Origin: a virus | Direction: 5' to 3' (one strand) | IMG/VR virus record: IMGVR_UViG_3300048672_001165 | Coordinates: 29,685-93,684 of that record | Length of the DNA: 64,000 nt | Part shown: positions 8,064 to 64,000 of the stretch, in pieces | Layout of the letters: every line of letters begins with the position of its first letter | Position numbering within the stretch: the first letter of the stretch is position 1 | Made by a program: the position numbers and the translations under genes | The notes under the pieces: generated by a model | Told to the model about the DNA's origin: nothing | Seen by the model: only the letters and a program-made list of their open reading frames with translations | Database searches by the model: none

Positions 8064-11000
8064 ATGACAACCTATAGCCAACGAAGCCGAGACGGCCAGC
8101 CGTACGATTTCCCCCAAGGTTTTTCCCTAGGCGGCGTCAGTCTAGACGCAGATGACAGTACACGGTCTATCGGCCTACAAGTCCCGGGTCAAGATGCGAC
8201 CACGCTTTATACGTGGCTGGTACAAACCAGGCAACGCCTGAGCGCTGCACAACAAACACTTCCCTTTGCAACGCAGCAACAAATAACAGAAGGTGTCAGC
8301 AACGCTTTGTTGATCAGCCCGGCTTCTCTTAAGCAAGCGCTGGCTAGCCTCATTGGTGTAGCGCCTGTAGCGCTCGACAGCTTGGCAGAGTTTGCCGCAG
8401 CCATCGGAAATGATCCTAACTTGTCAACCACGGTTGATTCACAACTGGCTCAAAAGCTCAGTCTTTTAGGATCGACTGCAACCGGTCTGGCTGAAACACC
8501 GACACCAACCACCAACCTCAATAAAGCACAAGCCATCAACATCGAGTATTTGCTTGCTAAAATTGATGAAGCTCTGCTCAGTCTGAAAGCGTTGCCGAGT
8601 GCGCCTACACTGGACGGCTTAAGCCTAGCATTGATTGGTCAGACCTATACGCTTAACATGTCTGCTACCGCAGGTAGTGGCTTGACAATTGCTAGCTTTA
8701 ATGTGCTGATCAACGGTGGTAACTTACAAACGGTAGCTGCCACCAACGGCGCCGGTGTTCTTCAATGGACTGTCGTTGGTACTGAAAACCAAACGCTTAC
8801 TTTCAGTGTCGTGGCAGTTGATAACCGTGGCCGTACGGGCCCGTCTGCGACCCTGCAAGCCACCGCCACTGCAACAGCTATTTATACGCCTACCTTTGTC
8901 AGCCCTGCTCAGGATAACCAAGGTGGTCTATCTCCTCACCTGACCATTGAAACCAGTGCGTTCAGCTCCCCGTTTGTGAGCCAAACCCACGCCGCCACTG
9001 ATTGGGCCATCATCAATGTGTCTACAGGACAAGTGGACTGGCAGGCTTTAGCTGATACGGCTAACCTCACCACCCGAGCAATACCTCGCACGTATCTTAA
9101 GAACGCTACGCAGTATACCATCACGGTGCGTTACATCAGTGCATCAGGTCAGACCTCAAGCTGGGGAACGCTACACTTTGGCACTGCTGCTTCTCAAGCA
9201 GCGCCCTCGTCCGTGGCTGGTTTTGGATATGCCCTACCCGGCGAAAACTACGCTGCCACAGTCACGGCTGTGGCCTCTACTGCACTGGATACCACCATTG
9301 AGAGTTACTACTACTCTGTGGATAATGGTGTTACCAAGTTACCTAATTTGCTTGGTTCAGTCAACAATGTCATTGCGGCAGGATCAGACTTGACAGGTCT
9401 TTCTGGAACCATTGACATCCTCTTTTATGTTTACCGAAACTACTCTGGGTTTTCTCTGCCAGTTGCTAAATCGGTGGTAGTGGGCCAAACAACTGCTGGA
9501 GCTTTCCTGTTTCCTACAGAAGGCTTGACGGGGGTGAGTCAACACCCCACATTCACAGTGAGTTCATACACCAGCAACATCCCAACCGATAGTCACTTGT
9601 CCAGTACCTGGACAGTCACGGATGTAGCTTCTAATGAAGTCATTGATGAAATCCACAATAGTGTTTCTGCAAAAAACGCTTGGAGCCCCGTTGGGTTGAC
9701 GGCAGGTACACAGTACCGCGTATCGTGTATTCAGCACGGTACCATCTTTGTAGGCCTACCTGCCGTCACTGTGACGTGTACGACCACGACGACACCTGAG
9801 GCTTACTTGCCCAGCCAGGTCATTTCCACCACCAGTGAAAATAACGCCCAGATGGGCTTTAGTTTGTCGACCAATCAAGACGGCTCGTTGTTTGTTGCAG
9901 GTATTCCTGCTGCAACCATGTACACGTTCAGTACACCACACACCAACAGTGGCGCTGTTGATTTCATTAATACCGCCCTGGCGACGTCCATTAGAACCAT
10001 GTATGGTCTTAGTACGGACATCAATACGCCGATCATATACACGGGTTTAGCATCCGGCATGAATGTGTTTGGTAACGTCATGGTGTACAACACGCGTTTG
10101 CCTAACATTGTCATTGCCGGACGCAATTCATCAGGTACCATGGTGAGTACCTCTGACGTCTTGAACAGCGCCATCACGACTGGTGCGGATGGGTTGGCAT
10201 TTGTCAAGGGTTTTGCACAAACAGATATGGGTATTGACTTTGCTGTGAGTTCTGCAGCAGGTATCCAGTGGTTCCAAAACTCCTCTCTGGCAGCGACCAC
10301 CAGACCGTTCTTGTTGTCCAGCACAATTCCTCAAGACCCGCTGGGGTTGGGGATGTCGCTACAGAGTTATGGAGATAGTCTTTCCATCAGCGGAGATGGT
10401 AATCGCCTTGCTGTGAGTCTTCGTTGGGGTATCAATACCAACGTGGCCAGCCTGGTTGGGTTTGCCGTTTACGACTACAACTCAACCAACAATACGTGGT
10501 CTTCTCCTGTGATTAAAACAGGTATTGTCATGGGGGCGTGGAACTTACCCACTGAGTTCAGTGCCAGCAACTGGATGCAAATGAGCCGTGATGGTAAAGT
10601 CATTGCACTGGGTAACCCATGTAAGTTGTCTAACAATACAGGTAAAGGCGCTATCCAGTTTTGGGTCAGTGACCGAGGCTCTGACCTTTCAGGTGAGACC
10701 TGGACACTCCAGCAAACCCTGGAAGACGCTAGAGGCGATGCCATTGATGGCGGCATGTTTGGTTATAGCTTGGCCTTGTCATCTAACGGCAGTGTGCTGG
10801 TTGCAGCTTGTGCGGGTTATTTGAACGACAACGGCTGCGGTCGCGTAGACTTGCTGCTGCGCACAACCCCGACCTCACAAAGCTGGCGTCAAAAGAATTA
10901 CTCCATGGTGCCGACGGCAATCAATCCTGCTGAATTGACCAATGCTCACGTGGGCTCTGCCTTGACGATAAGTGCAGATGGTCGGGTAGCCATGGCGTCT

Positions 11001-11150
11001 CATTTGAAATACAACGCAGGGTGCGGTGCTGCGCTGGTGTGGAATTTACCTTCCAGCATGATCACCCCTTACAGAGATGCTGGATTAGACAGCATCCCCA
11101 GTAACACCACTGAAGTGAACAATTTTGTGACTCGCGTGTCACAGATCTAA
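8064..11150 (+). CDS. Tail fibre/adhesin paralogue 1 (Ig/FnIII-like repeats plus C-terminal beta-propeller)
   Basis: LDSLAEFAAAIGNDPNLSTT fibre motif; S/T-rich beta domains; C-terminal repeats of the form (F/M)G.SL.(L/I)S.DG. Confidence 0.75.
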   Translation: MTTYSQRSRDGQPYDFPQGFSLGGVSLDADDSTRSIGLQVPGQDATTLYTWLVQTRQRLSAAQQTLPFATQQQITEGVSNALLISPASLKQALASLIGVAPVALDSLAEFAAAIGNDPNLSTTVDSQLAQKLSLLGSTATGLAETPTPTTNLNKAQAINIEYLLAKIDEALLSLKALPSAPTLDGLSLALIGQTYTLNMSATAGSGLTIASFNVLINGGNLQTVAATNGAGVLQWTVVGTENQTLTFSVVAVDNRGRTGPSATLQATATATAIYTPTFVSPAQDNQGGLSPHLTIETSAFSSPFVSQTHAATDWAIINVSTGQVDWQALADTANLTTRAIPRTYLKNATQYTITVRYISASGQTSSWGTLHFGTAASQAAPSSVAGFGYALPGENYAATVTAVASTALDTTIESYYYSVDNGVTKLPNLLGSVNNVIAAGSDLTGLSGTIDILFYVYRNYSGFSLPVAKSVVVGQTTAGAFLFPTEGLTGVSQHPTFTVSSYTSNIPTDSHLSSTWTVTDVASNEVIDEIHNSVSAKNAWSPVGLTAGTQYRVSCIQHGTIFVGLPAVTVTCTTTTTPEAYLPSQVISTTSENNAQMGFSLSTNQDGSLFVAGIPAATMYTFSTPHTNSGAVDFINTALATSIRTMYGLSTDINTPIIYTGLASGMNVFGNVMVYNTRLPNIVIAGRNSSGTMVSTSDVLNSAITTGADGLAFVKGFAQTDMGIDFAVSSAAGIQWFQNSSLAATTRPFLLSSTIPQDPLGLGMSLQSYGDSLSISGDGNRLAVSLRWGINTNVASLVGFAVYDYNSTNNTWSSPVIKTGIVMGAWNLPTEFSASNWMQMSRDGKVIALGNPCKLSNNTGKGAIQFWVSDRGSDLSGETWTLQQTLEDARGDAIDGGMFGYSLALSSNGSVLVAACAGYLNDNGCGRVDLLLRTTPTSQSWRQKNYSMVPTAINPAELTNAHVGSALTISADGRVAMASHLKYNAGCGAALVWNLPSSMITPYRDAGLDSIPSNTTEVNNFVTRVSQI

Positions 11151-11154
11151 CTCT

Positions 11155-11215
11155 GCGGCATAAAACCACACTCGCGGCGAGAGGGCTAAAAAACCCTCTC
11201 GCCTTTTATATCGCT
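11155..11215. terminator. GCGGCATAAAA motif plus hairpin
   Basis: GGCGAGAGGG/CCCTCTCGCC stem followed by a T-rich tract. Confidence 0.7.
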
Positions 11216-11242
11216 TTTTTCTTTTTACATCACTTCAACATC

Positions 11243-14200
11243 ATGACTCATAGCGTACGCCTGCCTGGCGGTGAGACTTACAATTTTGAACAAGGTATTG
11301 CTATCAGAGGTGCTGTACTGTCGTCACCTGATGGAGCCAAAGTGCTCGGGTTGCAGTTGCCTGGGGACACTAGCCTCAGGCGCCTTTATGACTGGGTGAT
11401 TGAAGCCGAGACTCGCATCAGTGCATCTCAAGCGTCTGTACCGTTTGCGACCGGCCCTGAAGCTATTGCGGGGCTCAGTGCCACTAAGCCTGTGGGGCCT
11501 ATGGGTCTTAAGGCCATCTTTGATGCTATTCGCGCCAGCACACCCACCGCACTGGATACCTTTGCTGAGTTTGCAAACGCCATTGGAAATGATCCTCAGT
11601 TTGCAACGCATATCTTTGCACTGATCGCTGCTAAAGCACCCAGTGCTTCTCCGACGTTTACTGGACTGGTGACGCTACCAAACGTCACCAGTCAATCTAG
11701 CCCTCAGCAAGCGGTCAATATTGGCGACATGGAAGCGGCTATTGAAAATATGCTCTTAGGCTTGATGCCCCCGCCAAATGCGCCAGTGCTTGACGGTGTA
11801 TCATTTGCAGTGGTAGGCACGGACTATGTACTTTCAATGAGTGCTGTGCCCAGTGATCCGAGACTCTCTATTGCTGAGTTCCAAATCTCGTTTGGTACCA
11901 ATGCGCCTGTCGTCGTCACAGCAACAGGTAATTCAGCTGTTTACAGCTGGCCTGCTGCGGGTACCACTGGCGTGTCACTTGACATCACCGTTTTGGCTAA
12001 AGACAATAAGAATAAGTTCTCAACCTCCACCGTGAAAACCATCACGATGCTGGCTGAACTGATTCAACATCCAACGATCATTTACCCGGCTGCCAACGCT
12101 TCTAACGTTGAATTTGACCCGGTCATTGAGCTGAGCCCTTTTACGGTTAACGTCGGCTCAGATACTCACGTGGCGACCAGTTGGGTTATTCGTGAGATCA
12201 GCTCTCAAGCGGTGGTGTGGCAATCGACCACAGACGCAACCAACCTCACCACCATCCACGTACCTCTAGGCTACCTGGCAGGTAGCCGTCAATATACCGT
12301 TGAGGCGACGTATCACGGCCTCACGCTAGGTGTGAGCGGTGTAAGCCGTCAGAACTTTACAACGGCTGCTCAAAAGGTAGCTCCTGCTGCGTCGGTGAAC
12401 GGCAGCAGCAATGCTGTTTTTGATAATGCTGATTTGACGCTGGTTGTTAACAGCACCATGACGACGTCGCCTGATACCGCCGTTGTCAAATACAGCTACT
12501 CGATTGGCTCACCTAACAACCCAGTGGATAAACTGAGCGTTCTTTCACAAGAGACGCTGGTGATCCCCTATAATCAGGTGGTGTTCAATAACCAAAATCA
12601 AGCGACACTCTACGTGTGGGTCACTTACAACCATACCGGTGTGAGCGCTCAAGCTCAAATCACACTGACCAAATACGTGGCTCAGCAAGCAAGCTTCACG
12701 TACCCGTCCTATGTGAATAACGTGGCTTTGTTTGACATTCCTGTCAAGCCTGTTTTTCAAACCACAGCTTATGTGAGTAATGTGCCTGGTGATACGCATC
12801 AGTCTACTGTGTGGACGCTGACCAATCTTGACTCCAACTTTGTTGAACTGACCGAGACGACTGCCTCGGGCAATTTAACCAGCTGGACGCCTTCTAAACA
12901 GATGGCTGTAGGATCACATTACGCCGTCACAGCCAAACAAGTGGGTGCTTATAACACAGCAGGGACTCTGTCTAAAGTCAGTCAGTTTTATACTGAGATG
13001 AACAGCAGCGTCAAAGTGCAGCAATCTTCAAAAACACTCTCGCCTACCGCCTTGGCATCTGCCACCAGTATTGGTCTTGGCAGTGTGGCCATCAGCCACA
13101 CGGGTGACAAAATCATGTTTGGTGACTTGGCGGCAGCGTACGCTCGCGGCGCCGTTTATACACTAGGTCGATCTGTGCTGGGTTACAGCGAACAGTCTGC
13201 TAATCTGGTTGAAATCACGTCGCCTATTTTCATGGCGCCTGACAATACCTATTACCAGGGCTTTGGTTTTAGAAATGCACTCTCTCCTGACGGCAGCTTT
13301 GCTGTAGCGGGTGGGTTTAATTCGGTTGGGGATGCTAACCGGTACTCTAACGTCACGGTGTGGGATACTGCTTTGGGTAACGTGTACGGCTACGGAGCAC
13401 CTTCTGTTTTACCAGGAGATGCTAATAACGTCAACATCTCCCACACCTGGGGGTTGGCTGCGTCTAATGCCAAGAAGCGTGTAGTGTATCACAGCGCTTA
13501 CCGAACGCAAATCAATGGCATCAATGGTACTTGGAGGCATGTGGTCGATACCATCGCACCTAACTTTACAGACCAGGTGCAGCCTTTGTTCTTATCGAGC
13601 GACAATACCAGCTATAACGCAGCTCAGCAGTATGACCCGCGTTATCCGTTGATGGATGGCAAGTATGTCAATCTATCCATTTCTGCAGATGGCAACACCC
13701 TGGCGGTGTGCTCACCTTATCAAGCTGGTGCTAATGGAGACTTCGTCAACGTCGTCACCGTCTACCAAGTTGTCAATAAAGTCTGGGTTGTTGTAGACCG
13801 TTTCTCAGATGACATAGACCGCAGCTACACGGCACTGCAGGCTCAGAATGATCTGGCGTACATGAACACCATGAGCATGAGCGGTGATGGCAACACCATT
13901 GTGTTGGCTGGCCGTACCCAAACCATCAACGGCTCAACCAGCGGGGAAGTCAACGTCTTCACTAAAACCGCAGGCGTGTGGTCTCTCTCTAATACGCTGA
14001 ATCCAAACGTGTCCATTCTGGACCGAGTGGGTCTGGCTGGTTTGGGTGATATTGTGTTTGGTCAAGCTGTCAGCATCAACCACGATGGTACGGTGATGGC
14101 GGTACTCTACCAAGACCAAGCTCAACAAAAACCTGGTTTTTACGACATCTGGCGCCAAGAAAATGGGACTTGGGTTGAGATGGGTTACCGTATTGAGCCG

Positions 14201-14359
14201 GCCAGCGGCGTCTCTTTAGTGCTTAATGCACCGGGCTATCGGTTTGGTTCTTACGACTTCAAGCTCAGTGGAGACGGCTCTACGCTGGCGGTGTCAGAAC
14301 CGTACTCTACCATAGGACAAGGCGGCGCTATTTTGATCTACAAGGTCGGCAACTACTAA
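11243..14359 (+). CDS. Tail fibre/adhesin paralogue 2
   Basis: LDTFAEFANAIGNDPQFAT motif; same domain order as 8064..11150; ISADG/MSGDG/LSGDG propeller repeats. Confidence 0.75.
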   Translation: MTHSVRLPGGETYNFEQGIAIRGAVLSSPDGAKVLGLQLPGDTSLRRLYDWVIEAETRISASQASVPFATGPEAIAGLSATKPVGPMGLKAIFDAIRASTPTALDTFAEFANAIGNDPQFATHIFALIAAKAPSASPTFTGLVTLPNVTSQSSPQQAVNIGDMEAAIENMLLGLMPPPNAPVLDGVSFAVVGTDYVLSMSAVPSDPRLSIAEFQISFGTNAPVVVTATGNSAVYSWPAAGTTGVSLDITVLAKDNKNKFSTSTVKTITMLAELIQHPTIIYPAANASNVEFDPVIELSPFTVNVGSDTHVATSWVIREISSQAVVWQSTTDATNLTTIHVPLGYLAGSRQYTVEATYHGLTLGVSGVSRQNFTTAAQKVAPAASVNGSSNAVFDNADLTLVVNSTMTTSPDTAVVKYSYSIGSPNNPVDKLSVLSQETLVIPYNQVVFNNQNQATLYVWVTYNHTGVSAQAQITLTKYVAQQASFTYPSYVNNVALFDIPVKPVFQTTAYVSNVPGDTHQSTVWTLTNLDSNFVELTETTASGNLTSWTPSKQMAVGSHYAVTAKQVGAYNTAGTLSKVSQFYTEMNSSVKVQQSSKTLSPTALASATSIGLGSVAISHTGDKIMFGDLAAAYARGAVYTLGRSVLGYSEQSANLVEITSPIFMAPDNTYYQGFGFRNALSPDGSFAVAGGFNSVGDANRYSNVTVWDTALGNVYGYGAPSVLPGDANNVNISHTWGLAASNAKKRVVYHSAYRTQINGINGTWRHVVDTIAPNFTDQVQPLFLSSDNTSYNAAQQYDPRYPLMDGKYVNLSISADGNTLAVCSPYQAGANGDFVNVVTVYQVVNKVWVVVDRFSDDIDRSYTALQAQNDLAYMNTMSMSGDGNTIVLAGRTQTINGSTSGEVNVFTKTAGVWSLSNTLNPNVSILDRVGLAGLGDIVFGQAVSINHDGTVMAVLYQDQAQQKPGFYDIWRQENGTWVEMGYRIEPASGVSLVLNAPGYRFGSYDFKLSGDGSTLAVSEPYSTIGQGGAILIYKVGNY

Positions 14360-14435: not shown

Positions 14436-17400
14436 ATGAAAGGTTACCGAGCACCTGGCGGCCAAGCCATCAATTTTGTTGATGGTTTACATGTCAAGTC
14501 TGTGGACATGCAAGGCGGCCAAGCGACGCAAGTCTTCAATGTCTCTATTGGTGGAGATGCCGTCAAGACACTCTACAATTGGATTGTCGACGCCAAAACC
14601 AAACTGGATAACATTGCAGACCCTTTGGTCTTTGCAACCAACCAATCAGCTGTAGCAGGTACAGCAACCAATGAAATCATCACACCCGCAGCCGCTAAAG
14701 CCGTGTTGGCCCAGTACGTCGGTCAAGCCACTGCTCAGCTTGATACACTTAGAGAGTTTGCTCTAGCCATCGGAAACAATCCCAACTATGCAGCAGACCT
14801 CACGGCTCGTCTGAACAACTATGCTTCTACCGTTGACGCCGCTTTTTCAGGGCCGCTTTTGGTACCCACTGCCGTCAATCTGAATCATCAAAAGCAGTTT
14901 GTGACGCTAGAACTCTTACAAGCGCTTTTGCAAACGACGGTGTTAGGTAATCAAGCTCCGCCGTCATCGCCTTCAATTGTCAACAGCAGCCCAGCTTATA
15001 GTGGCCTCAATCTGGCATTGACGCTGTCGAGTGTGCCTAATGTTTCTGGTACATTGACCATTTCGTCTTTCAGTGTCCAAGTCGACGGCGGCGCAGCTCA
15101 AACTGTCATTGCCAACAATAACACGGCTATCTTCAATGTGACGGTAGCTAAGCTGGCTGGTCAAACGTTGACTGTAGCCGTCACCGCTACAGACTCTGCA
15201 GGCAAGGTCTCTCAGGTCAGTACGCGCACCTTCACCGTCGAGTCGCTGACGGTCGTGCCGCCCGTTGTCATCTACCCATCGGTGGGGTTGAGCAACGTGA
15301 CGCTGCAGCCCATGCTGCAAGTTCAAAATCACCCTCTGGCCAGTAACGGTGCAGACCTTCAAGTCAGTGGACAACACGCTTCTACCACGTGGGTCATTAA
15401 AGACGCCAGCAATGCCGTTGTTTGGTCAAAGGTGGGTACAAGCGGCACTCCTGATGAACGCTACAGTGTTCAAGCGCCTGCACTCCTACCTCAAACCCTT
15501 TATACACTGGATGTATTCTTCACGGTGACAGGTATTGGGGTATCACCTACCAGCAGTGTGGTTTTTACCACGACGCTGCCTCAAACAGTGCCTGTGGTGA
15601 CCAGCCCTGTCAACATTGCATCAGGTACAGAGTTGGTGTTTTCAGTGACCTCTGACGCGCCATATCCTGACACCAGTGTTACCAGTTTCATGTACCGTAT
15701 TGACAGTAACGGTGCAGGTGCCAATTGGCTGGAACAAACAACGTCAACGGGCAGCGCAGTCATCGCCATGCCGAGTTATTCGTTTTCATCTGCGCCCGGG
15801 GCAACGCTGACCATCAGCATCTACGCCAAAGGTAACAACGGTGCAGAATCGAATCATGTCACGTTTAATGTGGCGCAAGTGATTGAAAATCCATTGACCT
15901 GGGCGATCAATACCACTGATCTGATTTTGTCTTTTGATCACCCCACCGTATCGGTCAATCCTTGGACAAACGTGGTGGACGGTAACCACATTCAAGGGTA
16001 TGACTGGGTGGTCATTGACATGGCCAACAGTAACCAATTGGCTTTGCCTGGTAGTTTCATTCCAGACACCATTGGTAATGTTGGAAATGTGTTTACCATT
16101 CCAGCCATGCTCAAAATCAACCATCAATATCAGATGTACACCAGAGCTATTGCGCCTAAGAAAATCATTGAGTCGCCCACCATCACGTTCACGACCAGTG
16201 ACGCGGCTCAGATTGTAGAAACTCAAAACATCACGCAAGTGGCAGCCAGCACAACCATTGATTATGCTACCACCATCGATGTTGATCAGACTGGGACGTC
16301 GCTGCTTATTTCTTCACCCAGCGATGTCAGTGGTGGACAAACCACGGGTAAGGTCTTTGCTATTGACGTGGCAACTGGATCTCCAGGTGCAACGGGTACA
16401 GGACCTTCAAGTCAAAGTGGTAACAATTTAAAGTTTGGCCAGCGTATTTCATACAGCGGTGATGCTCATACCTTTGCAGCGTGTTTTGATACGCTGCCTA
16501 ACGTAGAAATCTACCGAGGTAGTATTCAATCAGGCTACAGCCTGTATGCCACCATTGCTATTCATGCAGACCGACTCTACCTCAATGAGGATGGCAACTA
16601 TTTAGCTGTTCGACAATTTGTAGATACTGAGTACAGCGTCGTGGTCTATAACCTCTCAGGTGTGACGCCTGTGGTGGAGTATACCGTGACAGCGGACATG
16701 ATCCATTCGCCACCTGGTACGGTGTACAGCTCGGCAGGGGAATCTTGGCGAACAGGCAACGTCATTCGCTTGAGTGCGGATGGGAAATACTTGGTGATGG
16801 GTTGCTGTACAAACTACACGTATGGTTCTGCCAATCGTGAGTTGTCAGCGTTTGTTTTCAAAAATACCAGTGTGGGTTGGGCCAAAGTAGGCGCTGTCTT
16901 TTCTGATGACAAAACCTCTTACGGCTCACTGGGTATGGACACCCAAGATAACTGGCTGGACATTGATGCTAACTGCTCTCGGATTGCCATTGGCATGCCT
17001 GAGCAACCTAGTCAATGTGTAAAAATTTGGGACGTCAACGACTATACCACAGACACCCCTACTTTTTCTGCTCCCGTGGTGATCACGGATGCTTCAACTT
17101 TGGTGATGAGTCAAAGTCGGTTTGGTTTTTCTGTTTGTTTGTCGTCAGATGGACAGCGCTTGGCTGCTACCAGCTTGAACGCCGCCAGCGTCTACATCAA
17201 CAGCACCATCACCAGTTATGTGATCGGTAAATTCTCTGTCTTTGATCTCAAGCCCGCGGGGTGGACACAACAGCCTTATAACTACATCCCTAGTTTGTTC
17301 TCTGCGCAAAACACCAGTCAAACCGCAGAGATGTCACTGGGGCTGGGTACGCGCATGCGTATGAGCGGCAACGGACTCTATGTCTTTTTGAGTAATCAAG

Positions 17401-17477
17401 GTACGGGGTATTTAAATGGGTCTTACTCCACCCCTATCAACAACACCAACGTGTACCGATTCACAATCATGCCGTGA
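14436..17477 (+). CDS. Tail fibre/adhesin paralogue 3
   Basis: LDTLREFALAIGNNPNYA motif; same architecture; FGQRISYSGD and FGFSVCLSSDG propeller repeats. Confidence 0.75.
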   Translation: MKGYRAPGGQAINFVDGLHVKSVDMQGGQATQVFNVSIGGDAVKTLYNWIVDAKTKLDNIADPLVFATNQSAVAGTATNEIITPAAAKAVLAQYVGQATAQLDTLREFALAIGNNPNYAADLTARLNNYASTVDAAFSGPLLVPTAVNLNHQKQFVTLELLQALLQTTVLGNQAPPSSPSIVNSSPAYSGLNLALTLSSVPNVSGTLTISSFSVQVDGGAAQTVIANNNTAIFNVTVAKLAGQTLTVAVTATDSAGKVSQVSTRTFTVESLTVVPPVVIYPSVGLSNVTLQPMLQVQNHPLASNGADLQVSGQHASTTWVIKDASNAVVWSKVGTSGTPDERYSVQAPALLPQTLYTLDVFFTVTGIGVSPTSSVVFTTTLPQTVPVVTSPVNIASGTELVFSVTSDAPYPDTSVTSFMYRIDSNGAGANWLEQTTSTGSAVIAMPSYSFSSAPGATLTISIYAKGNNGAESNHVTFNVAQVIENPLTWAINTTDLILSFDHPTVSVNPWTNVVDGNHIQGYDWVVIDMANSNQLALPGSFIPDTIGNVGNVFTIPAMLKINHQYQMYTRAIAPKKIIESPTITFTTSDAAQIVETQNITQVAASTTIDYATTIDVDQTGTSLLISSPSDVSGGQTTGKVFAIDVATGSPGATGTGPSSQSGNNLKFGQRISYSGDAHTFAACFDTLPNVEIYRGSIQSGYSLYATIAIHADRLYLNEDGNYLAVRQFVDTEYSVVVYNLSGVTPVVEYTVTADMIHSPPGTVYSSAGESWRTGNVIRLSADGKYLVMGCCTNYTYGSANRELSAFVFKNTSVGWAKVGAVFSDDKTSYGSLGMDTQDNWLDIDANCSRIAIGMPEQPSQCVKIWDVNDYTTDTPTFSAPVVITDASTLVMSQSRFGFSVCLSSDGQRLAATSLNAASVYINSTITSYVIGKFSVFDLKPAGWTQQPYNYIPSLFSAQNTSQTAEMSLGLGTRMRMSGNGLYVFLSNQGTGYLNGSYSTPINNTNVYRFTIMP

Positions 17478-23904: not shown

Positions 23905-23931
23905 AAAGAAACCACATATCACCATCTTGTG
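23898..23931 (+). promoter_or_regulatory. Putative early (virion RNAP) promoter
   Basis: GCA-N12-CACATATCAC-CATCT-TG; same spacing as four other copies; resembles the phiKZ early TATATTAC motif. Confidence 0.6.
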
Positions 23932-32421: not shown

Positions 32422-32424
32422 ACT

Positions 32425-32458
32425 GCAATTTTTTCTAATCACATATCACTAAGATGAA
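32425..32458 (+). promoter_or_regulatory. Putative early promoter
   Basis: GCA-N12-CACATATCAC-TAAGA-TG, followed by a leader hairpin and TTAGGAGT RBS. Confidence 0.7.
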
Positions 32459-32494
32459 GTAGGGAATGTATCTCTACAACTTAGGAGTATTACC

Positions 32495-32764
32495 ATGTCT
32501 GTCCGTCAAACCCTGAGCGTCTCGACTTCGGTCGAGACGTTTTTGTTTAACTTCAGCTCGACTTCGGTCGAGCTGGTTCTGAACCAGCGCGTGGCTGGCC
32601 GCGTTCGCGCGGCCACAGTCCGCGCTTTGTTCGCGGCCGCAGTGGCCGCCTTCTCGGCCGGCGCTGGCGCCGCCGAGGTGGATGACTATTGCGACAACGC
32701 GGTCGTCGCCGGGCTGAACTGGCAAGCGGCGATCGATGACATATTCACTGCAGCGATGCAGTGA
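32495..32764 (+). CDS. Small early protein on a hairpin-tiled sequence (may be a structured or dual-function RNA)
   Basis: AGGAG RBS, 89 aa; consecutive stem-loops including three UUCG loops and one GCGA loop. Confidence 0.5.
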   Translation: MSVRQTLSVSTSVETFLFNFSSTSVELVLNQRVAGRVRAATVRALFAAAVAAFSAGAGAAEVDDYCDNAVVAGLNWQAAIDDIFTAAMQ

Positions 32765-32859
32765 AGTTTCCCAGTAGTGAGAAAGAGGGTCAGTAGGCTC
32801 TCTTTCTTTTGCCTGTGCTTACCAGGCTTTGTAGTAAGCAAATCAATTAGGAGTGAATT

Positions 32860-33207
32860 ATGTCTTTCTACGCTGATGTTCTTGCCGGGCGAGTTCAAAT
32901 GCCCCACCCGCAGTCATGGGACAGCGTGTTTGGGGGCTTTGACCAGATTGAGGGGGCGACTCAGGCCGCCTCGCTGGCGAAGATCCCCAGCTGCCGCTGG
33001 GGTATTCTGGCGTTCGACGACCAGAATACCAACCCGGTCGCCATCCCCATTTTCCCCCGGCTTGGGGGAAATGGCCTGGAAGAGGCGGTTCAGGCCGCCG
33101 CTGCGGTGGCCGGCATCTTGTACTCGACCACCCACGTGGTCGACGTGCGGCTGCGCGTGGCGGCTGTCCTGCCTGGCCTGCAAAGTCACGCCAGCTTCAC
33201 CTTCTGA
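32860..33207 (+). CDS. Hypothetical early protein
   Basis: TTAGGAGT RBS, 115 aa; hairpin-dense coding sequence. Confidence 0.65.
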   Translation: MSFYADVLAGRVQMPHPQSWDSVFGGFDQIEGATQAASLAKIPSCRWGILAFDDQNTNPVAIPIFPRLGGNGLEEAVQAAAAVAGILYSTTHVVDVRLRVAAVLPGLQSHASFTF

Positions 33208-33219
33208 AGGGGGGTTATC

Positions 33220-33903
33220 ATGACCCCCTTCAACGAGCCGCGCGTTTACGCGGCGGGGTTGTCTACGGACGACCCCACGCAGGCCTTCGCTTATGGCGAA
33301 GGCCTCTTCGTCCGGCAGCGCAACAAGGTGGCGTTCACTACGTCCGGCAATTTCATTGCCGAGCTGGCGCAGGGGCTCTGGTACCAGATCAATGGTACCC
33401 GGGTGAAAAAGCCCGCCACGGCGGTGATTAAGCCGGACATCGCAGTCCGGGCGTTTTCGCATGACCGCTACATGGCGGTGATGTCAGAAATCGCCACGGA
33501 CTGCGAAGCGGTCCAGGGGTTGCTGGAAGGACAGCCCCTGGTCCAGAACTTAGACCTAGTGCCGCGAATGGCACCGCATACGCCAGCTGCCCCGGGAGAA
33601 ATCCCGGAATTTAAGCTGGTGGCATCGCCGAACAGCGGCAGCTCCTTCACGTCGGATGTAAAGTTCGACGTGAAGTTTGGCAATCTGTCTTTCCGAGACG
33701 AGACGGGCAACCGCATCGTCGTGAACGACCTGCTTCCGTATGCGCAGGAGGCATTTCGATTTGACGTGACTATCATGAAGTTTCAGCAGCTGGCCGCCCT
33801 GGTGCGGCTGGCGCTGACCTTTAATGAAAGTCAGACGTCTTGGAAAATCCAATGGGTCTTCGTGCCGCAAACCGGGCTGTATTACAGCCTTGAGGCGGCA
33901 TAA
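33220..33903 (+). CDS. Hypothetical early protein
   Basis: 227 aa; RBS and start sit inside hairpin 33205-33232; hairpin-dense; ends in GCGGCATAA. Confidence 0.7.
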   Translation: MTPFNEPRVYAAGLSTDDPTQAFAYGEGLFVRQRNKVAFTTSGNFIAELAQGLWYQINGTRVKKPATAVIKPDIAVRAFSHDRYMAVMSEIATDCEAVQGLLEGQPLVQNLDLVPRMAPHTPAAPGEIPEFKLVASPNSGSSFTSDVKFDVKFGNLSFRDETGNRIVVNDLLPYAQEAFRFDVTIMKFQQLAALVRLALTFNESQTSWKIQWVFVPQTGLYYSLEAA

Positions 33904-33957
33904 AGCCCAGAGGCGTACAAAGGATTAAACCCCCTTTGTACGCCTCTTTATTTTTTC
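33895..33957. terminator. Bidirectional terminator
   Basis: GCGGCATAAA plus AGAGGCGTACAAAGG/CCTTTGTACGCCTCT stem between convergent genes. Confidence 0.75.
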
Positions 33958-35764: not shown

Positions 35765-35960
35765 GTAGGCTGCTTAACTTTCCAAAGTAAGTGACTTCAA
35801 CTTGTGAAAGAAAGGGAATAAGTCAATGGTTCTGACTGAAACCCACCTGTCGCCAGAGATGTTTGTGTTCGAGGAAATCCCTCCTGAGCACATTCCACAT
35901 TACCTGGCTCTGTTGTCTGAAGGCCAAATACCCACGGCCGAATTGATCAAGGAACGCATC

Positions 35961-37556
35961 ATGACCACCAACTGCATCGACACCACCACCATCGTCACCG
36001 ACGTCGCCTACGGTGGCGACCAGACCGGCATCAGTGCCGCCCCGGCGCTGACCCTGATCAGCAATCCGCTGGCCGGCGATGATGCCGGCGCTTCCTCGTA
36101 CGAAGCTCCGACTCCGACCACCGCTGCCCCGGTCGTCATCGCCAACGCCGCCTGGGCGCCGGTGGCACGGCCGTCCTACGCCGAGCCGATCCCCTACAAG
36201 GCCGGCCTGAGCACGGACGTGCAAACGCAAGCGTACGTCTACGAAGGCGAGCGGTATATCCGTCACAAGACGGTTGAGCCGTTTGTCACGTCCGGCAACT
36301 TCGGCAAGGAACGCAACGAGGGTAAGTGGTACAAGATCGGCGCAGCGGGCGCCAAGGTCGCTGGCGCCAACGGTACCGTCCTGGCCCCGGCCAAGCCCGC
36401 CGCTTTCAACGAGCCGGTGCAGTACGTTGTCGGCCTCGACACGGCCGACCACACCCAGCCGGTCGACGCGCCGGACGGCAACCGCTACGTGCGGGAACGA
36501 AAGGTGCCGGCGTTCATCGCCAGCGGCGACTTCGAAGCCGAACTGGCCGCCGGCAAGTGGTTCAAGATCCGCGGCCCCAAGCCGGTCAAGGCCGAAGTGA
36601 TCATGGCCCCCAAGGCCAAGACCCTCACCGGCGCTCCGGCTTCGTCGGAAGCCCTGCAGAAGCTGGCCGAGCGCGCCAACAACACCAACCTGGCCAAGCT
36701 GGTGTCCCCGGTGAAGACCGCGTCGCTGCTGCAAGCTGCAGCGGCCGGCTCCGGCCACAAGGCCAAGCTGGCTGGCCTGGTCGCCGCCTCGACCGGCAAC
36801 GATGAGTGGCGTGAGGACACCCTGAACATCTGGACCCGCTCGGCGCAGCCGGTCGGCCAGCTGCTGGACGTCTCCGCTGACAACAACGTCGGCCTCGACC
36901 TCGGCCTGGACAAGGACGGCAACCCGATCTCGGGCGGCACGTTCCGTACCGTCAAGGGTCTGGAACTCTGGCTGCGCCTGAAGGACCAGTCCTTCGAGGC
37001 GATGGTCCAGACGCTGCGCACGGCCAGCAGCGGCAAGCTGCACCATGTGGTCAAGGACCACCCGGAGCATTTCAGCGACCTGAGCCCGGAAATCATCGCG
37101 CTCATCGGCGCGGTGCTCTGGGACCACCTGCTCAAGGCCGAGCACGTCGCTCACCGTGCTGAACTGGCCCGCGCCGGCCAGATCGTGTCGAAGTACATGC
37201 ATGGTGAAGAGATCGACGAAGCCACCGGCGCCGTCCTGACGCCGGGCAGCTGGCGCCACACCACCGAGGCCTGGTGGATCGTCCCGCTGGCGCAAGCCAT
37301 GCAGGATGCGCTGCTGACCGCGGACGCCGAAGGTCGTGATGCGGCTGAAGTCGCCGTCGATTGGGACGGAACGGCCAAGCAGGCCTTCGAAGACAACAAG
37401 AAGCGCATCGAGCGCCGGCAGGCGCAACGTGTCGACTTCAATGCGCCTGCCCGGCGCAGCTCGTTCATCACGGACTACCGTGATCCGCCCAAGCCCAAGC
37501 ACGGCAAGAAGGTCAAGGTCGAGACGGCCGCGCCTGCCAAGAAGGGCAAGAAGTAA
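35961..37556 (+). CDS. Early protein with two tail-spike-N-like repeats, a NADAR-like domain and a basic tail
   Basis: Codon usage switches to C/G-ending at ATG 35961 (AAGGA RBS; ORF is open from 35826). Repeats EPIPYKAGL...GKWYKI and EPVQYVVGL...GKWFKI; DTLNIWTRS..PVGQLL...GTFRTVKGL.LWL resembles phage NADAR proteins. Confidence 0.65.
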   Translation: MTTNCIDTTTIVTDVAYGGDQTGISAAPALTLISNPLAGDDAGASSYEAPTPTTAAPVVIANAAWAPVARPSYAEPIPYKAGLSTDVQTQAYVYEGERYIRHKTVEPFVTSGNFGKERNEGKWYKIGAAGAKVAGANGTVLAPAKPAAFNEPVQYVVGLDTADHTQPVDAPDGNRYVRERKVPAFIASGDFEAELAAGKWFKIRGPKPVKAEVIMAPKAKTLTGAPASSEALQKLAERANNTNLAKLVSPVKTASLLQAAAAGSGHKAKLAGLVAASTGNDEWREDTLNIWTRSAQPVGQLLDVSADNNVGLDLGLDKDGNPISGGTFRTVKGLELWLRLKDQSFEAMVQTLRTASSGKLHHVVKDHPEHFSDLSPEIIALIGAVLWDHLLKAEHVAHRAELARAGQIVSKYMHGEEIDEATGAVLTPGSWRHTTEAWWIVPLAQAMQDALLTADAEGRDAAEVAVDWDGTAKQAFEDNKKRIERRQAQRVDFNAPARRSSFITDYRDPPKPKHGKKVKVETAAPAKKGKK

Positions 37557-48268: not shown

Positions 48269-48444
48269 CAAAGGCTCCTTTGAAAAAGAGTTGGATTACC
48301 TATACAAACAAAGAAAAGTACTATAAAAAGTAACTCATTTCATGGCCAGTCTCTTTGGACTCATTATAAGAAAACATTTTAGTACAAGCGCCAGCAATCG
48401 AGTGAGCATTTTTCAATACGTTTTTTATTGTGAGAAGAGAATTT

Positions 48445-50082
48445 ATGGACTTGAAGCCTTTCAATATTGATTTGCTGGTGATCACGGATGAGATCGCTAA
48501 GCTTGTTAACCCTGTGACGTCAACTGACATCTTTGAAGGTGTCACCAAGAACTTGAATAAAGACGGCCTGTACTCCCAAGAGATTTTTGGTGTACGTGGC
48601 TCGGATGTGCGCTACAAGAAGTTCTCCTATATTCAGTTGGGTGCACCTGTGCTGCACCCTCTGGTGTATAAGACACTTCTAAAGATGAAAGGGTTTTACG
48701 GCGACGTCTTTGCAGGTAAAGCTTACGCTAAAGTCGATAAGCTCACCAAAGATTTGGTACCTTGTCCACCTGAAGAAGGTGAGACGGGCTATGACTTTAT
48801 GTTCAAAGTCTGGCCTACGCTGGTGTTTCCTGAGAATGACTCCCAGCAACGTCAAGAAAACATTGACTTCCTTACCAAGTATAAAGGCAAGCACGTGCTC
48901 CAGCGTTGCTACGTGCTGCCTGCAGGCTACCGGGACGTTGAAGTCGATGACCAGGGTCGTGAGAGCAGTGATGATATCAATAGCTTTTACTATAAGCTCA
49001 TTGCAATTTCACGAACCATTGCAGAACCCATTTTTAAGACAAACCCTGAAGTCTATAACCAGCAGCGACTGTCTCTACAGAACACGCTCCTAGACTTGTT
49101 TGACTACGTTCTTAATATCTTGGACGGCAAGAACGGTTTGATCATGAGTAAGTGGGCAGCTCGACACATTGCTGACTCCACCCGAAACGTGATCACGTCC
49201 ATGCGCGCATATACGGCAGATCTGGATGGCCCTGAGTCCATCAGCATCAATACCGCATTCATGGGCGTACACCAGTTCATGCGCTCTTTGCTGCCAGTGA
49301 CCTGTCACCGTTTGATGACTGGTTTTTTGTCAACAGTGTTCAGTACAGCAACTGCTCCTGCACTGCTGACGGATAAGAAAACACTCAAGAGTGCTCGTAC
49401 GAATGTAAGCCCTTATGTCTTTGACAGATGGATGACGGTGGAAGGGCTCACCAAGCTCATTGCCAAGTATGGTGAGCCAACCATTCGAAATGAGCCTATC
49501 ATGATTGGTAACTATTATCTTGGGCTACTCTATAGAGGTCCAGATCAAACCTTCAAGTTGATTCACGGCGTCGATGAGCTACCTGAAGGGCGTCTGCCTG
49601 AACACTGCTCACCAATCACGTATACGGAACTTTTCTATCTGACCATGTATCCGACGTCAGAAAAGTATCCGTTTTTCACAACGCGTTATCCAGTTGCTTC
49701 TGACCGCTCTATCCGACCTGTGCTGGGCTGCCTTGTCCCCACAGTGATGACAGAAGTCAGGCAAGAGTTAGACGGCGTGTGGCGGCCTTTTGAAGGTCCT
49801 GACTATACAGCGGTGCGTTTCCCCATGATAGGGTCTGAGACGTTCAACTCCATGGCCCCGCACAGCAGCTCACTGGTCATGCACGAGGCCGACTTTGACG
49901 GCGACACCATGTCAGCTGTCCCAGTCATGACTGATGAATCGGTTGCTGAAGTCACTGATCTTTTCAATGACAGGTCGTTCTATATCGGCCCTGATGGCGA
50001 TTGGCGCCACGACTACATGACCGACACCATTGCATTTGTGTTCTACAACTTCACAGGTCCTCGCACGCCTAAGGCGGCATAA
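48445..50082 (+). CDS. rpoC: Virion RNA polymerase beta' N-terminal subunit (phiKZ gp180-like)
   Basis: DGLYSQEIFG, VLPAGYRD, TRNVIT, TRYPV and catalytic ADFDGD. Confidence 0.92.
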   Translation: MDLKPFNIDLLVITDEIAKLVNPVTSTDIFEGVTKNLNKDGLYSQEIFGVRGSDVRYKKFSYIQLGAPVLHPLVYKTLLKMKGFYGDVFAGKAYAKVDKLTKDLVPCPPEEGETGYDFMFKVWPTLVFPENDSQQRQENIDFLTKYKGKHVLQRCYVLPAGYRDVEVDDQGRESSDDINSFYYKLIAISRTIAEPIFKTNPEVYNQQRLSLQNTLLDLFDYVLNILDGKNGLIMSKWAARHIADSTRNVITSMRAYTADLDGPESISINTAFMGVHQFMRSLLPVTCHRLMTGFLSTVFSTATAPALLTDKKTLKSARTNVSPYVFDRWMTVEGLTKLIAKYGEPTIRNEPIMIGNYYLGLLYRGPDQTFKLIHGVDELPEGRLPEHCSPITYTELFYLTMYPTSEKYPFFTTRYPVASDRSIRPVLGCLVPTVMTEVRQELDGVWRPFEGPDYTAVRFPMIGSETFNSMAPHSSSLVMHEADFDGDTMSAVPVMTDESVAEVTDLFNDRSFYIGPDGDWRHDYMTDTIAFVFYNFTGPRTPKAA

Positions 50083-58201: not shown

Positions 58202-58642
58202 ATGAGCAAGCATGAGCAATACGAAGCGATCAAGGTCGCCCTGGGTGCACAAGTCGAAGTCGTTGACGGTGGCGTGACCATCGCTGACGACCAGTACTAC
58301 GTGGTCGCCGAATCCGTCGCCAGCCTGAGCAAGGAAGTCATCAACCAGGTCAACGGCTACAACGGCGACTACCAGGCCGCCGCTGCTGTCGTCATGGGCG
58401 AGCAAGCCCTGAAGATGCTGGCCGGCGACGACAGCCTGTCCGAAGTGGTCGGCAACGCTGACGCCGGCGGCACCATGGTGACCAGCCTGACGCAGCGCGA
58501 GCGCACCTTCACCAACCCGCGCACCGGCGAGGCCCAGACCACCAGCGGCCACACCACCATCAAGGTCCGCACCGCCACGCCGGGCCTGCGCCTGGCCAAG
58601 CACGACCTGGAAGAGCTGCGAAAGACGCACTTCCCCAGCTGA
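58202..58642 (+). CDS. Early protein of unknown function, probably highly expressed
   Basis: AAGGA RBS, ATG 58202; extreme C/G-ending codon bias; followed by a hairpin and TTTTATGCC. Confidence 0.75.
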   Translation: MSKHEQYEAIKVALGAQVEVVDGGVTIADDQYYVVAESVASLSKEVINQVNGYNGDYQAAAAVVMGEQALKMLAGDDSLSEVVGNADAGGTMVTSLTQRERTFTNPRTGEAQTTSGHTTIKVRTATPGLRLAKHDLEELRKTHFPS

Positions 58643-62775: not shown

Positions 62776-62836
62776 TGACTTCTGGGTGGGTATGATAAAT
62801 ACCCACCTGCCTTTCTTATTCTACCGGAGAAAATAC

Positions 62837-63382
62837 ATGGATGAGTTGAAAAAGAAACTGCTATCGCCCATGACAGAAAGTCTCAACAAAGTCTTAAACA
62901 TGCTGACAGACTTATGGGGTCAGTTAGTAGGCGTGGCCAACGCATGTGCTCTTATTGATAAGCGTTTGGCTATCCTGCAAGAACAAGTCGATAGACAACA
63001 AACTCAACTAGACCAGCTTACCAACACCGTCAAGAGTTTGATGACCGCCACAAGTATTGATCCTATGCAGTTTAATAAGGCTTCTCAGTCAAGCATATTT
63101 GCTGAAGAATATACTGCTCTGCAAAAAAGCATGAGTGCCCATAATGAGCAACTCGTGCAAGCAGCAATGCAAGAAAACCTAGAACGCTTCAAAGCAGAAC
63201 AACAGCGCCTCTTAGCTATGAAAGAAGAAGAGATCAAAGCGCTTAAGAAACAAGTAAATGAAACAACAAAACGACCAGCCTCACCCCTAGAAAAAATAAC
63301 AGAGCCGCCAGTGCTTAATCACAAAAGCTCAAAACCTAAATGGAAAGTATTAGATATGTGGCCTAGTACCCCAAGAAAATAA
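62837..63382 (+). CDS. Coiled-coil hypothetical protein
   Basis: GGAG RBS before ATG 62837; heptad-rich. Confidence 0.6.
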   Translation: MDELKKKLLSPMTESLNKVLNMLTDLWGQLVGVANACALIDKRLAILQEQVDRQQTQLDQLTNTVKSLMTATSIDPMQFNKASQSSIFAEEYTALQKSMSAHNEQLVQAAMQENLERFKAEQQRLLAMKEEEIKALKKQVNETTKRPASPLEKITEPPVLNHKSSKPKWKVLDMWPSTPRK

Positions 63383-63448
63383 AAAAGGTAATAACCAAAG
63401 GTAGCTTTTATAAAAGCTTACCTTTTTCTTTTATGCTGGCATAAAAGA

Positions 63449-63493
63449 AAAACAAGATTGCAGAAATACGCAATCACATATAACAACTATGAG
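63449..63493 (+). promoter_or_regulatory. Putative early promoter
   Basis: AAAACAAGATTGCA-N12-CACATATAAC-AACTA-TG; leader hairpin and TTAGGAGT RBS as at 32425. Confidence 0.7.
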
Positions 63494-63539
63494 ATAAGGA
63501 ATGTCTTCTTATCCAAATGTGTTACTTTAGGAGTTTGAC

Positions 63540-64000
63540 ATGACCCGCATCGTTAACCTGACCCAGCATACCGGCACCCCGACTCAAAGTGAGCAGGGTC
63601 TCATCGAGGTCTCTGCCGAAGACCGCAGCGCCCTGACGGCGCTGCTGACATTCGATTCCCCCCCGGAAGCGGGGGAGATCGACGAACGTGCAGGCGCGAT
63701 CGTGCAGATCGCGCAGAAGTACGGCGCCACGCGCGCCATGATTGGAGGAGCCATGTGGCTCCAGGGCCCGCTGGAGCGGGCCCTGTTCTGTGTTCGAATC
63801 GAACCCGTCTACGGCTTTTCTCGGCGCGCAAGCGTCGAGGAGAGTCTTCCGGACGGCACCGTCCGGAAGGTGCAGGTATTCGAACACGTGGGGTGGGTCC
63901 GCCCGTATAAGGCGGACTTCGAAGTCCGCCCGGAGGCGCCGGCTCCGGCGGTGGAAGGTTGGGTGGTGGTTTGCCTCCCAACCAAACCCTGGGGGGGGCC
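63540..64000 (+). CDS. Csx20/Csx15-like protein (candidate ring nuclease), truncated by the window end
   Basis: Manual translation: MTRIVNLTQHTGTPTQSEQG...AMIGGAMWLQGPLERALFCVRIEPVYGFSRRASVEESLPDGTVRKVQVFEHVGWVRPY...; no stop before 64000; AGGAG RBS. Confidence 0.6.
   Translation, partial: MTRIVNLTQHTGTPTQSEQGLIEVSAEDRSALTALLTFDSPPEAGEIDERAGAIVQIAQKYGATRAMIGGAMWLQGPLERALFCVRIEPVYGFSRRASVEESLPDGTVRKVQVFEHVGWVRPYKADFEVRPEAPAPAVEGWVVVCLPTKPWGG

Follow-up and report, generated by a model that had tools for sequence, protein, structure and literature searches.

The plus strand at the right-hand end of the virus record IMGVR_UViG_3300048672_001165 (IMG/VR) carries a short unit in which an early-type promoter, a leader stem-loop and a ribosome-binding site (RBS) precede an open reading frame (ORF) for a protein of the MJ1673/Csx20 family, and the coding sequence of this ORF is densely tiled with perfect hairpins. 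The analysed stretch, here called the window, comprises the final 64,000 bases of the 93,684-base record (a 93.7-kb fragment), and positions refer to the window unless the contig is named. The region from 63459 to 64000 would make up the 5′ portion of an early unit which is transcribed independently in a phiKZ-like jumbo phage. Between the upstream gene (62786–63382) and the promoter sit two AT-rich palindromes which are likely the terminator or the boundary of the upstream unit; a simple terminator scan of the plus strand did not call them. All features are compiled in Table 1 together with those of a sister unit (the “32.5-kb operon” of the preliminary description of this DNA). There is little doubt about both the anatomy of the unit and the family to which its gene belongs.

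Table 1. Positions of the features in the Csx20-like unit and its sister unit (window coordinates; bp, base pairs; nt, nucleotides)
Feature	Position	Strand	Details
Two AT-rich palindromes	63403–63452	+	16-bp palindrome 63403–63418; 14-bp stem 63423–63452 (8 and 14 in our own stem scan)
Early promoter	63459–63491	+	TGCA 63459–63462, 14 nt, octamer CATATAAC 63477–63484, 5 nt, TG 63490–63491
5′ leader stem-loop	63493–63513	+	7–8 pairs, loop AAUGUCU
Shine-Dalgarno sequence	63527–63534	+	TTAGGAGT, 5 nt ahead of ATG
Csx20-like ORF	63540–64000	+	at least 153 codons, open at contig end
Hairpin run	63625–63988	+	about 17 perfect local hairpins, stems 6–11 bp, loops 0–13 nt
Hairpin	63625–63645	+	stem 8, loop 5
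Hairpin	63657–63676	+	stem 6
Hairpin	63694–63714	+	stem 8
Hairpin	63747–63762	+	stem 7
Hairpin	63762–63785	+	stem 11, loop 2; GC-rich, followed by T-rich tail TTCTGTGTTC (terminator scan)
Hairpin	63846–63869	+	stem 11, loop 2
Palindrome	63911–63930	+	20 bp
Hairpin	63957–63963 with 63977–63983	+	GGTTGGG with CCCAACC, loop 13 nt; found by reading
Sister unit (32.5-kb operon)	32424–33947	+	same promoter (octamer 32442–32449), leader hairpin, RBS at 32481
Sister-unit ORFs	32495–32764, 32860–33207, 33220–33903	+	three, GC-rich, hairpin-tiled
Sister-unit terminator	33909–33947	+	15-bp stem

The eight inverted repeats on which the preliminary description was based are all present, as was found by reading and by an independent scan. 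Within the 459-nt ORF eight perfect stems of at least 7 bp were counted, whereas 200 synonymous-codon shuffles had a mean of 0.99 and none of them reached eight. Almost half of the ORF bases (49%) lie inside perfect hairpins with stems of at least 6 bp, compared with 5–8% in three control early genes two of which are GC-matched. The RNA from 63490 to 64000 has a minimum free energy (MFE) of –261 kcal/mol against –212 ± 7 kcal/mol in dinucleotide shuffles (z = –6.75), and in the MFE structure local hairpins follow one another as in a chain. No stem lies within the first 85 nt of the ORF, which is to be expected where translation starts.

The promoter follows the pattern TGCA-N14-[TC]ATAT[TCA]AC-N5-TG, which occurs in ten plus-strand copies in the contig with invariant spacing (window octamers at 23915, 32442, 35748, 58065 and 63477, with five more copies located 5′ of the window). 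A scan for sigma-70-type promoters over this unit gave no match. Early promoters of jumbo phages were described as a conserved AT-rich motif of about 10 nt around position –10 that is found upstream of early operons and is read by the virion RNA polymerase (PMC7598289, PMC8244752), and the putative promoter at 63459–63491 fits this description. The start site of transcription is presumed to be close to 63490 and the “early” timing is suggested by the similarity of the promoter.

The combination of promoter, leader and RBS was found by nhmmer four times in the contig (E 1e-21 to 2e-30), namely at contig positions 10662, 19735, 62126 (window 32442) and 93161 (window 63477). RNAalifold of the four leaders yields eight pairs, at two of which both partners have changed in a compensatory manner, and the sense strand contains G.U pairs. 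The loop AAUGU(C/A)U is conserved in all four leaders while the stem covaries, and a loop that stays constant while its stem varies is suggestive of a partner that binds it specifically. In every cassette a TTAGGAG-type RBS and an ATG stand 3′ of the leader hairpin, a terminator-like palindrome is located before the cassette, and orphan or variable genes come after it. It had been proposed already from two members that this is a distinct class of early units with a common promoter motif, leader sequence and RBS. The fourfold cassette bears this out, and the individual elements were confirmed too: AATCACATAT occurs exactly twice in the window (32437 and 63472), GGAATGT lies 26 nt 3′ of it in both units, and the RBS TTAGGAGT is found at 32481 and 63527. 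By inspection, short hairpins of differing sequence appear to start at the conserved TG after all ten early-class promoters, and a stem-loop at the 5′ end looks like a general rule for the predicted early transcripts of this phage. Covariance models of Rfam 15 gave nothing with E < 0.69 between 63300 and 64000, and the pattern ATATMAC-N5-TGARRTARGGAATGT had no match either in public viral contigs or in metagenome contigs.

A related strain was met in one public sequencing run (X3). Its contigs break at the promoter-leader (63472–63519), and in one contig of 18.9 kb this leader, with 6 differences in 48, precedes a different gene. The identity between this strain and the present sequence is 97% upstream and falls to 87% inside the Csx20-like gene. 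Relatives, too, contain this promoter-leader cassette as a dispersed repeat; the X3 contigs are fragmentary and a cassette-bounded exchange between the strains is putative. Such a repeat at which contigs of relatives break, the perfect Watson-Crick symmetry of the palindromes and the resemblance to the shuffling mediated by PeSL elements in T4-like phages (PMC4122927) would suit an explanation in which the palindromes act on DNA, either as cruciforms or single-stranded hairpins for cassette exchange or for protection or recognition in injection or replication. We regard this as highly improbable since recombination of cassettes needs shared flanks and not dozens of unrelated intragenic palindromes; moreover, the G.U pairs of the leader and the bias of tetraloops towards the sense strand (see below) are features of RNA.

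Inside the contig tiling clearly follows the leader class. The eight genes located behind the four leader cassettes contain 37 stems of at least 7 bp in 3,627 nt (10.2 per kb), whereas the ten genes behind the six other early promoters have 10 such stems in 8,400 nt (1.2 per kb), which corresponds to a rate ratio of 8.6 (P about 9e-12). Each of the eight genes deviates individually from its synonymous shuffles (P ≤ 0.04) with MFE z values between –2.8 and –6.2. The Csx20-like ORF has a GC content of 65% compared with about 49% for the contig. GC alone is insufficient for tiling because two equally GC-rich early genes (35826–37556 and 58202–58642; 65%), which have an early-class promoter without the GGAATGT leader, show no stem excess over synonymous shuffles. 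One GC-rich control was folded and proved to be less structured (z = –3.1 against dinucleotide shuffles).

The suggestion that the tiled class is enriched in counter-defence genes was weakened, as only one of its eight genes is annotated in this way and two of the other seven are paralogues of each other. No family match in Pfam, PHROGs or NCBIfam was obtained for these seven genes, and a search for related loci returned nothing for the two of them that were submitted. The product of 33220–33903 in the tiled sister unit (227 amino acids) retrieved only itself among 5.8 billion protein clusters, and an Atlas search with the tiled gene at contig 10726 gave no usable match. The two paralogues are arranged in tandem at contig 10726–12076; they are GC-rich, share 32% identity (E 7e-12) and possess Lys/Arg-rich tails. 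Kinship of this pair with three AT-rich genes located behind it (contig 12221–14149) was not detectable by BLASTP (E 0.9). The first ORF of the sister unit (32495–32764) is of low complexity, rich in Ala, Val and Ser, and contains twin C(UUCG)G hairpins, the first of which is followed by TTTTTGTTT only about 25 nt into the ORF. It may represent an attenuator or a non-coding RNA instead of a protein.

A broader view is provided by homologous coding stretches from 46 other, mostly viral, contigs, none of which has this leader. Together they contain 84 stems of at least 7 bp while about 20 are expected from synonymous shuffles (about 4-fold excess, Poisson P about 3e-26, 5.0 per kb). Tiling is not tied to this promoter because these leaderless homologues are hairpin-rich as well; it goes along with the gene, or with blocks of genes, and not solely with this promoter class. 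The excess points to a phenomenon that is wider than one promoter class and not an artefact. The preliminary description had linked hairpin density with the promoter and leader class and had named equal folding of homologues of similar GC as the finding that would speak against this link. Inside the contig the association stands; among the homologues the contrary finding is partly borne out. Many homologues are local GC peaks, e.g., 0.54 in a locus of 0.36 (L017), 0.53 in 0.34 (L013) or 0.69 in 0.50 (L040). The 123 neighbour ORFs of the homologues display a weaker excess (144 stems against 70, 1.7 per kb). Blocks with elevated GC and many hairpins that comprise two to four small neighbours around the Csx20-like gene were seen in L006 (300–2400), L025 and L008 (2100–2700). 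Among cultured phages homologues were found only in RM378 and Pm86. CRISPR-linked Csx20 genes were also sought for tiling, and no match to NF040559 at E ≤ 1e-8 was present in 301 genomes of one phylum.

The hairpins of the homologues recur at the motifs FSxRE, PDGxVRK and RKxxVFR, and their stems, registers and loops differ. Synonymous codons complete the stems; for example, Lys AAG pairs with the third base of Val GTC in most homologues, and Lys AAA with Ile ATT in L029. The codons for G-x-L-E-R-A-L, which form the 11-bp stem 63762–63785 here, give another perfect hairpin in the X3 strain, whose stem has 6 bp and whose loop is GAAA (end of one low-depth contig). Since the same codons and motifs carry different stems across alleles and homologues, the presence of hairpins appears to be maintained, and these patterns argue for a selection that keeps “a hairpin here” rather than a particular sequence. 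A column-wise search for conserved helices in the codon alignment was not informative because the hairpins shift register. Altogether we consider it very probable that the hairpins are under selection.

The contrary explanation is that the hairpins are functionless and derive either from GC-rich cassettes of palindrome-rich donors or from a mutational process, template switching (“quasipalindrome correction”), that perfects imperfect inverted repeats wherever the protein tolerates it. Several observations are in line with such a by-product. The motifs concerned contain residues with mutually reverse-complementary codons (F/E, S/R, P/R, D/V), the tiled genes are GC islands in a genome of 49% GC, whole neighbour blocks are hairpin-rich in some foreign loci (L006, L025), folding is symmetric on both strands, and transition-type mismatches dominate in the near-perfect stems. 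Nevertheless, a functionless origin seems rather unlikely to us: in one genome the excess is limited to one leader class and spares two GC-matched early genes, it recurs in homologues from backgrounds of 34–70% GC, and in two alleles the same codons keep a hairpin although the stems differ. The loops contradict it as well. UUCG and GNRA account for 12 of 39 sense-strand tetraloops compared with 8% in shuffles (P 5e-5), whereas their complements account for none of the 39 (strand asymmetry P 0.016). Because the enrichment of UUCG/GNRA loops is confined to the sense strand and the leader stem uses G.U pairs, we lean, on moderate evidence, towards selection at the level of RNA and mainly of the sense RNA.

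Concerning the encoded protein, residues 1–122 constitute an MJ1673/Csx20-family domain and residues from 123 on are predicted to be disordered. A total of 475 homologues of about 120 amino acids was obtained and all listed ones carry PF27247, which is named “MJ1673” in the Atlas; the nearest Atlas clusters are 91–100% PF27247 and 67–82% viral. Across the whole domain the protein is 43–57% identical to hundreds of proteins of this size, and the alignment displays the conserved motifs NLTQH, LLTF, AMIGGA, FSxRE, PDGxVRK and VFxHxG. The NCBIfam model Csx20 (NF040559) covers only residues 86–119 of the query. All 46 aligned homologues match NCBIfam CAS_Csx20 below the cut-off (best 4e-12), and the control genome of M. 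jannaschii, the home of MJ1673, contains an NF040559 match above it. From a Csx20 protein a dimeric CARF-like Rossmann core is expected with a five-stranded sheet flanked by helices. AlphaFold2 predicts an alpha/beta fold (mean pLDDT 88) in which four strands and four helices were called. Foldseek returned nothing below E 0.03 and ranked the CARF domain of Cam1 with bound cyclic tetra-adenylate (cA4) fifth. A sequence search of the PDB with the ORF product was empty.

Csx20 is a cA4-specific ring nuclease which is present in 4 of 28,114 phage genomes (PMC12409355), and csx20 homologues are also known from Aca-regulated anti-CRISPR operons (PMC13551039). The 123 neighbour ORFs mentioned above include one Cas10 and two Csx3 besides many phage genes (Erf, Gam, NinG, Sak4, protease), i.e. 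the family is associated with type III CRISPR loci or viral anti-defence operons, and the gene described here lies in a phage early unit. Thus, it is probably a Csx20-like candidate ring nuclease directed against type III CRISPR; its kinship to the family is well supported and its activity is predicted. In this case the earlier assumption that a tiled gene may serve counter-defence is plausible.

From these elements the following course of events can be envisaged. The injected virion RNA polymerase presumably would read the promoter and the RNA, starting near 63490, would open with the conserved AAUGUCU stem-loop followed by the strong RBS. The protein would cleave cA4 and so weaken the signalling of type III CRISPR at an early stage of infection. 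Cyclic tetra-adenylate is the second messenger of type III CRISPR systems, and phages of the phiKZ type shield their DNA, and not their mRNA, from host defences. The dense GC-rich hairpins, which would have been built over the conserved protein via synonymous and conservative codon choices, may keep the naked early mRNA folded, so that RNases specific for single strands (RNase E or collateral ones of the Csm6/Csx1/Cas13 type) would cut it poorly and, in addition or instead, CRISPR RNAs (crRNAs) would hybridise with it poorly. The mRNA of a ring nuclease would be just the message that needs to be translated even after such RNases are switched on. That the hairpins protect early transcripts in this way is the reading which we prefer among those considered, but it is a tentative proposal put forward with some reserve. 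Early phage genes are the preferred source of new spacers in type III CRISPR systems (PMC13575424). In a more general version, tiling would serve counter-defence at the RNA level in early and anti-defence genes of phages and would recur as such in unrelated genomes; the transcripts needed first for translation would be almost fully base-paired and thereby hidden from type III and Cas13 crRNAs and from collateral RNases. This version is speculative and in our opinion improbable.

Hairpins in an early mRNA could alternatively be regulatory, either as pause, attenuation or termination signals for the phage RNA polymerase or as sites of RNase III-type processing that limit or time potentially toxic early proteins. 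Anti-CRISPR (Acr) genes are known to require tight control (PMC13551039), the hairpin 63762–63785 is trailed by a T-rich tail, and a C(UUCG)G hairpin with a T-run lies close to the start of the first ORF in the sister unit. On the other hand, a U-tract makes just this one of the about 17 hairpins in the Csx20-like ORF terminator-like and the other approximately 16 have no T-rich tail, classical RNase III sites require stems longer than 6–11 bp, and positions shift between homologues, so that general structuredness fits better than specific signals. We therefore rate regulation as unlikely.

The complete explanation, namely an early unit with a Csx20-like gene and protective hairpins that are selected in RNA, has in our judgement about even chances, and a number of facts weigh against it. 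The start of transcription, its timing and even expression of the unit are deduced. The Csx20 assignment is under the NCBIfam cut-off (21.9 bits where 70 are demanded), and the fold searches yielded no specific relative of the predicted model, as the best matches of VIA-align were generic Rossmann-like domains with Z ≤ 7.8. Tiling is not universal: about two thirds of the homologues are individually non-significant, the copy of Rhodothermus phage RM378 is without any hairpin, and six further early units of this phage do without tiling. Seven of the eight tiled genes are without functional assignment. At the level of RNA the tetraloop asymmetry comprises 39 loops only (P 0.016), the folding energy of perfect Watson-Crick stems is symmetric between the strands, and G.U versus A.C mismatches (10 versus 6) give no clear strand signal. 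These symmetric folding and mismatch counts leave room for a DNA-level or mutational origin.

The source of the sequence is an uncultured phiKZ-like jumbo phage fragment of freshwater metagenome origin. A fragment of a split multisubunit RNA polymerase beta subunit is located at 48430–50082 with best matches (40% identical) in Ralstonia and Burkholderia jumbo phages, and further phiKZ-type PHROG families are encoded on the record, which probably belongs to a nucleus-forming phage of the multisubunit RNA polymerase type. A search at the DNA level against cultured phages revealed no close match. The public sequencing runs that contain the stretch are freshwater metagenomes, and no RNA runs were found among them. 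The record is classified as linear with a CheckV completeness of 35%, and the right edge of the window is the end of a contig rather than of a genome. The record terminates in a run of eight G with the Csx20-like ORF still open. Joining of the record head to tail would close this frame five codons further on, which is probably due to chance because the record is only 35% complete. Elsewhere in the window three consecutive ORFs of similar length (8064–11150, 11243–14359 and 14436–17477; about 1,000 amino acids each) possibly encode paralogous structural or fibre proteins.

The position at a contig end bears on one last alternative, namely that the stretch is no protein gene but specifies a structured RNA (non-coding or a decoy), or that it arose as an artefact of assembly. 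Sequencing depth drops sharply over the last approximately 260 nt (63739–64000), in the run that covers the stretch best from 80.9 to 5.9 and 2.5, GC-rich sequence leaves several frames open, and the first ORF of the sister unit is of low complexity. For the unit described here this alternative is largely refuted and scarcely credible since the frame encodes a protein with the numerous homologues and the confident model mentioned above, diverged copies occur in independent runs, three internal units of the contig have the same features, and no Rfam family is matched.

Half of the bases of this conserved protein gene lie in perfect hairpins, and the locus probably exemplifies strong selection on the structure of an mRNA within its coding part. 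The mRNAs of jumbo phages stay exposed to RNA-targeting defences although the DNA is shielded from DNA-targeting ones. If the hairpins are protective they would constitute a layer of defence evasion that is overlooked by protein-centred searches; tiling (together with local GC elevation) could then point, from sequence alone, to candidate anti-defence genes among the orphans of phages and would be of consequence when Cas13 or type III tools are designed against phages. If they are of mutational origin instead, they are a useful warning for RNA-structure screens. In full-text literature searches on hairpins and RNA structure in phage early genes, anti-CRISPR genes and RNA-targeting CRISPR we found neither dense tiling of coding sequences as a class property nor a link of tiling with a leader subclass or its recurrence in distant homologues. 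Reports of dense intragenic hairpins in the Csx20/MJ1673 family were not found either.

Several constituents of the locus are of known kinds, i.e. jumbo-phage early promoters, stabilising 5′ stem-loops, PeSL-like cassettes and phage-borne Csx20 homologues. With the Csx20/MJ1673 ring nucleases of phages (compare AcrIII-1/Crn2) the present protein shares the small alpha/beta domain of about 120 amino acids, the family motifs, the viral origin and the putative early or anti-defence position. It differs in that the NCBIfam cut-off is not reached, in a disordered C-terminal extension of at least 30 residues and in an activity that is predicted. In contrast with csx20 in Aca-controlled operons the gene resides in a jumbo phage behind a promoter of the virion RNA polymerase type. 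The likeness to the phiKZ-like early promoters read by this enzyme includes the conserved AT-rich motif of about 8–10 nt near –10, its presence ahead of many early operons and the split multisubunit RNA polymerase of the phage. Peculiar to the present phage are its own version of the motif ([TC]ATAT[TCA]AC), with TGCA and TG placed 14 nt before and 5 nt after it, respectively, and, by inspection, a 5′ stem-loop after each copy, four of which share one loop sequence.

PeSLs of T4-like phages (PMC4122927) are likewise composites of terminator, early promoter and stem-loop that border small, variable and mostly orphan early genes, and in both cases the composite is a plausible site of modular exchange. 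The cassettes described here belong to another phage family and their polymerase would not be the host sigma-70 enzyme, the evidence for exchange consists of contig breaks in a relative, and PeSLs are without tiling of the downstream coding sequence. Finally, the leader resembles the 5′ stem-loops of the ompA type that protect against RNase E, since a stable hairpin is found a few nucleotides from the presumed 5′ end of the early transcripts. Unlike in these, the loop sequence is conserved in four units and the structure runs on through the ORF.

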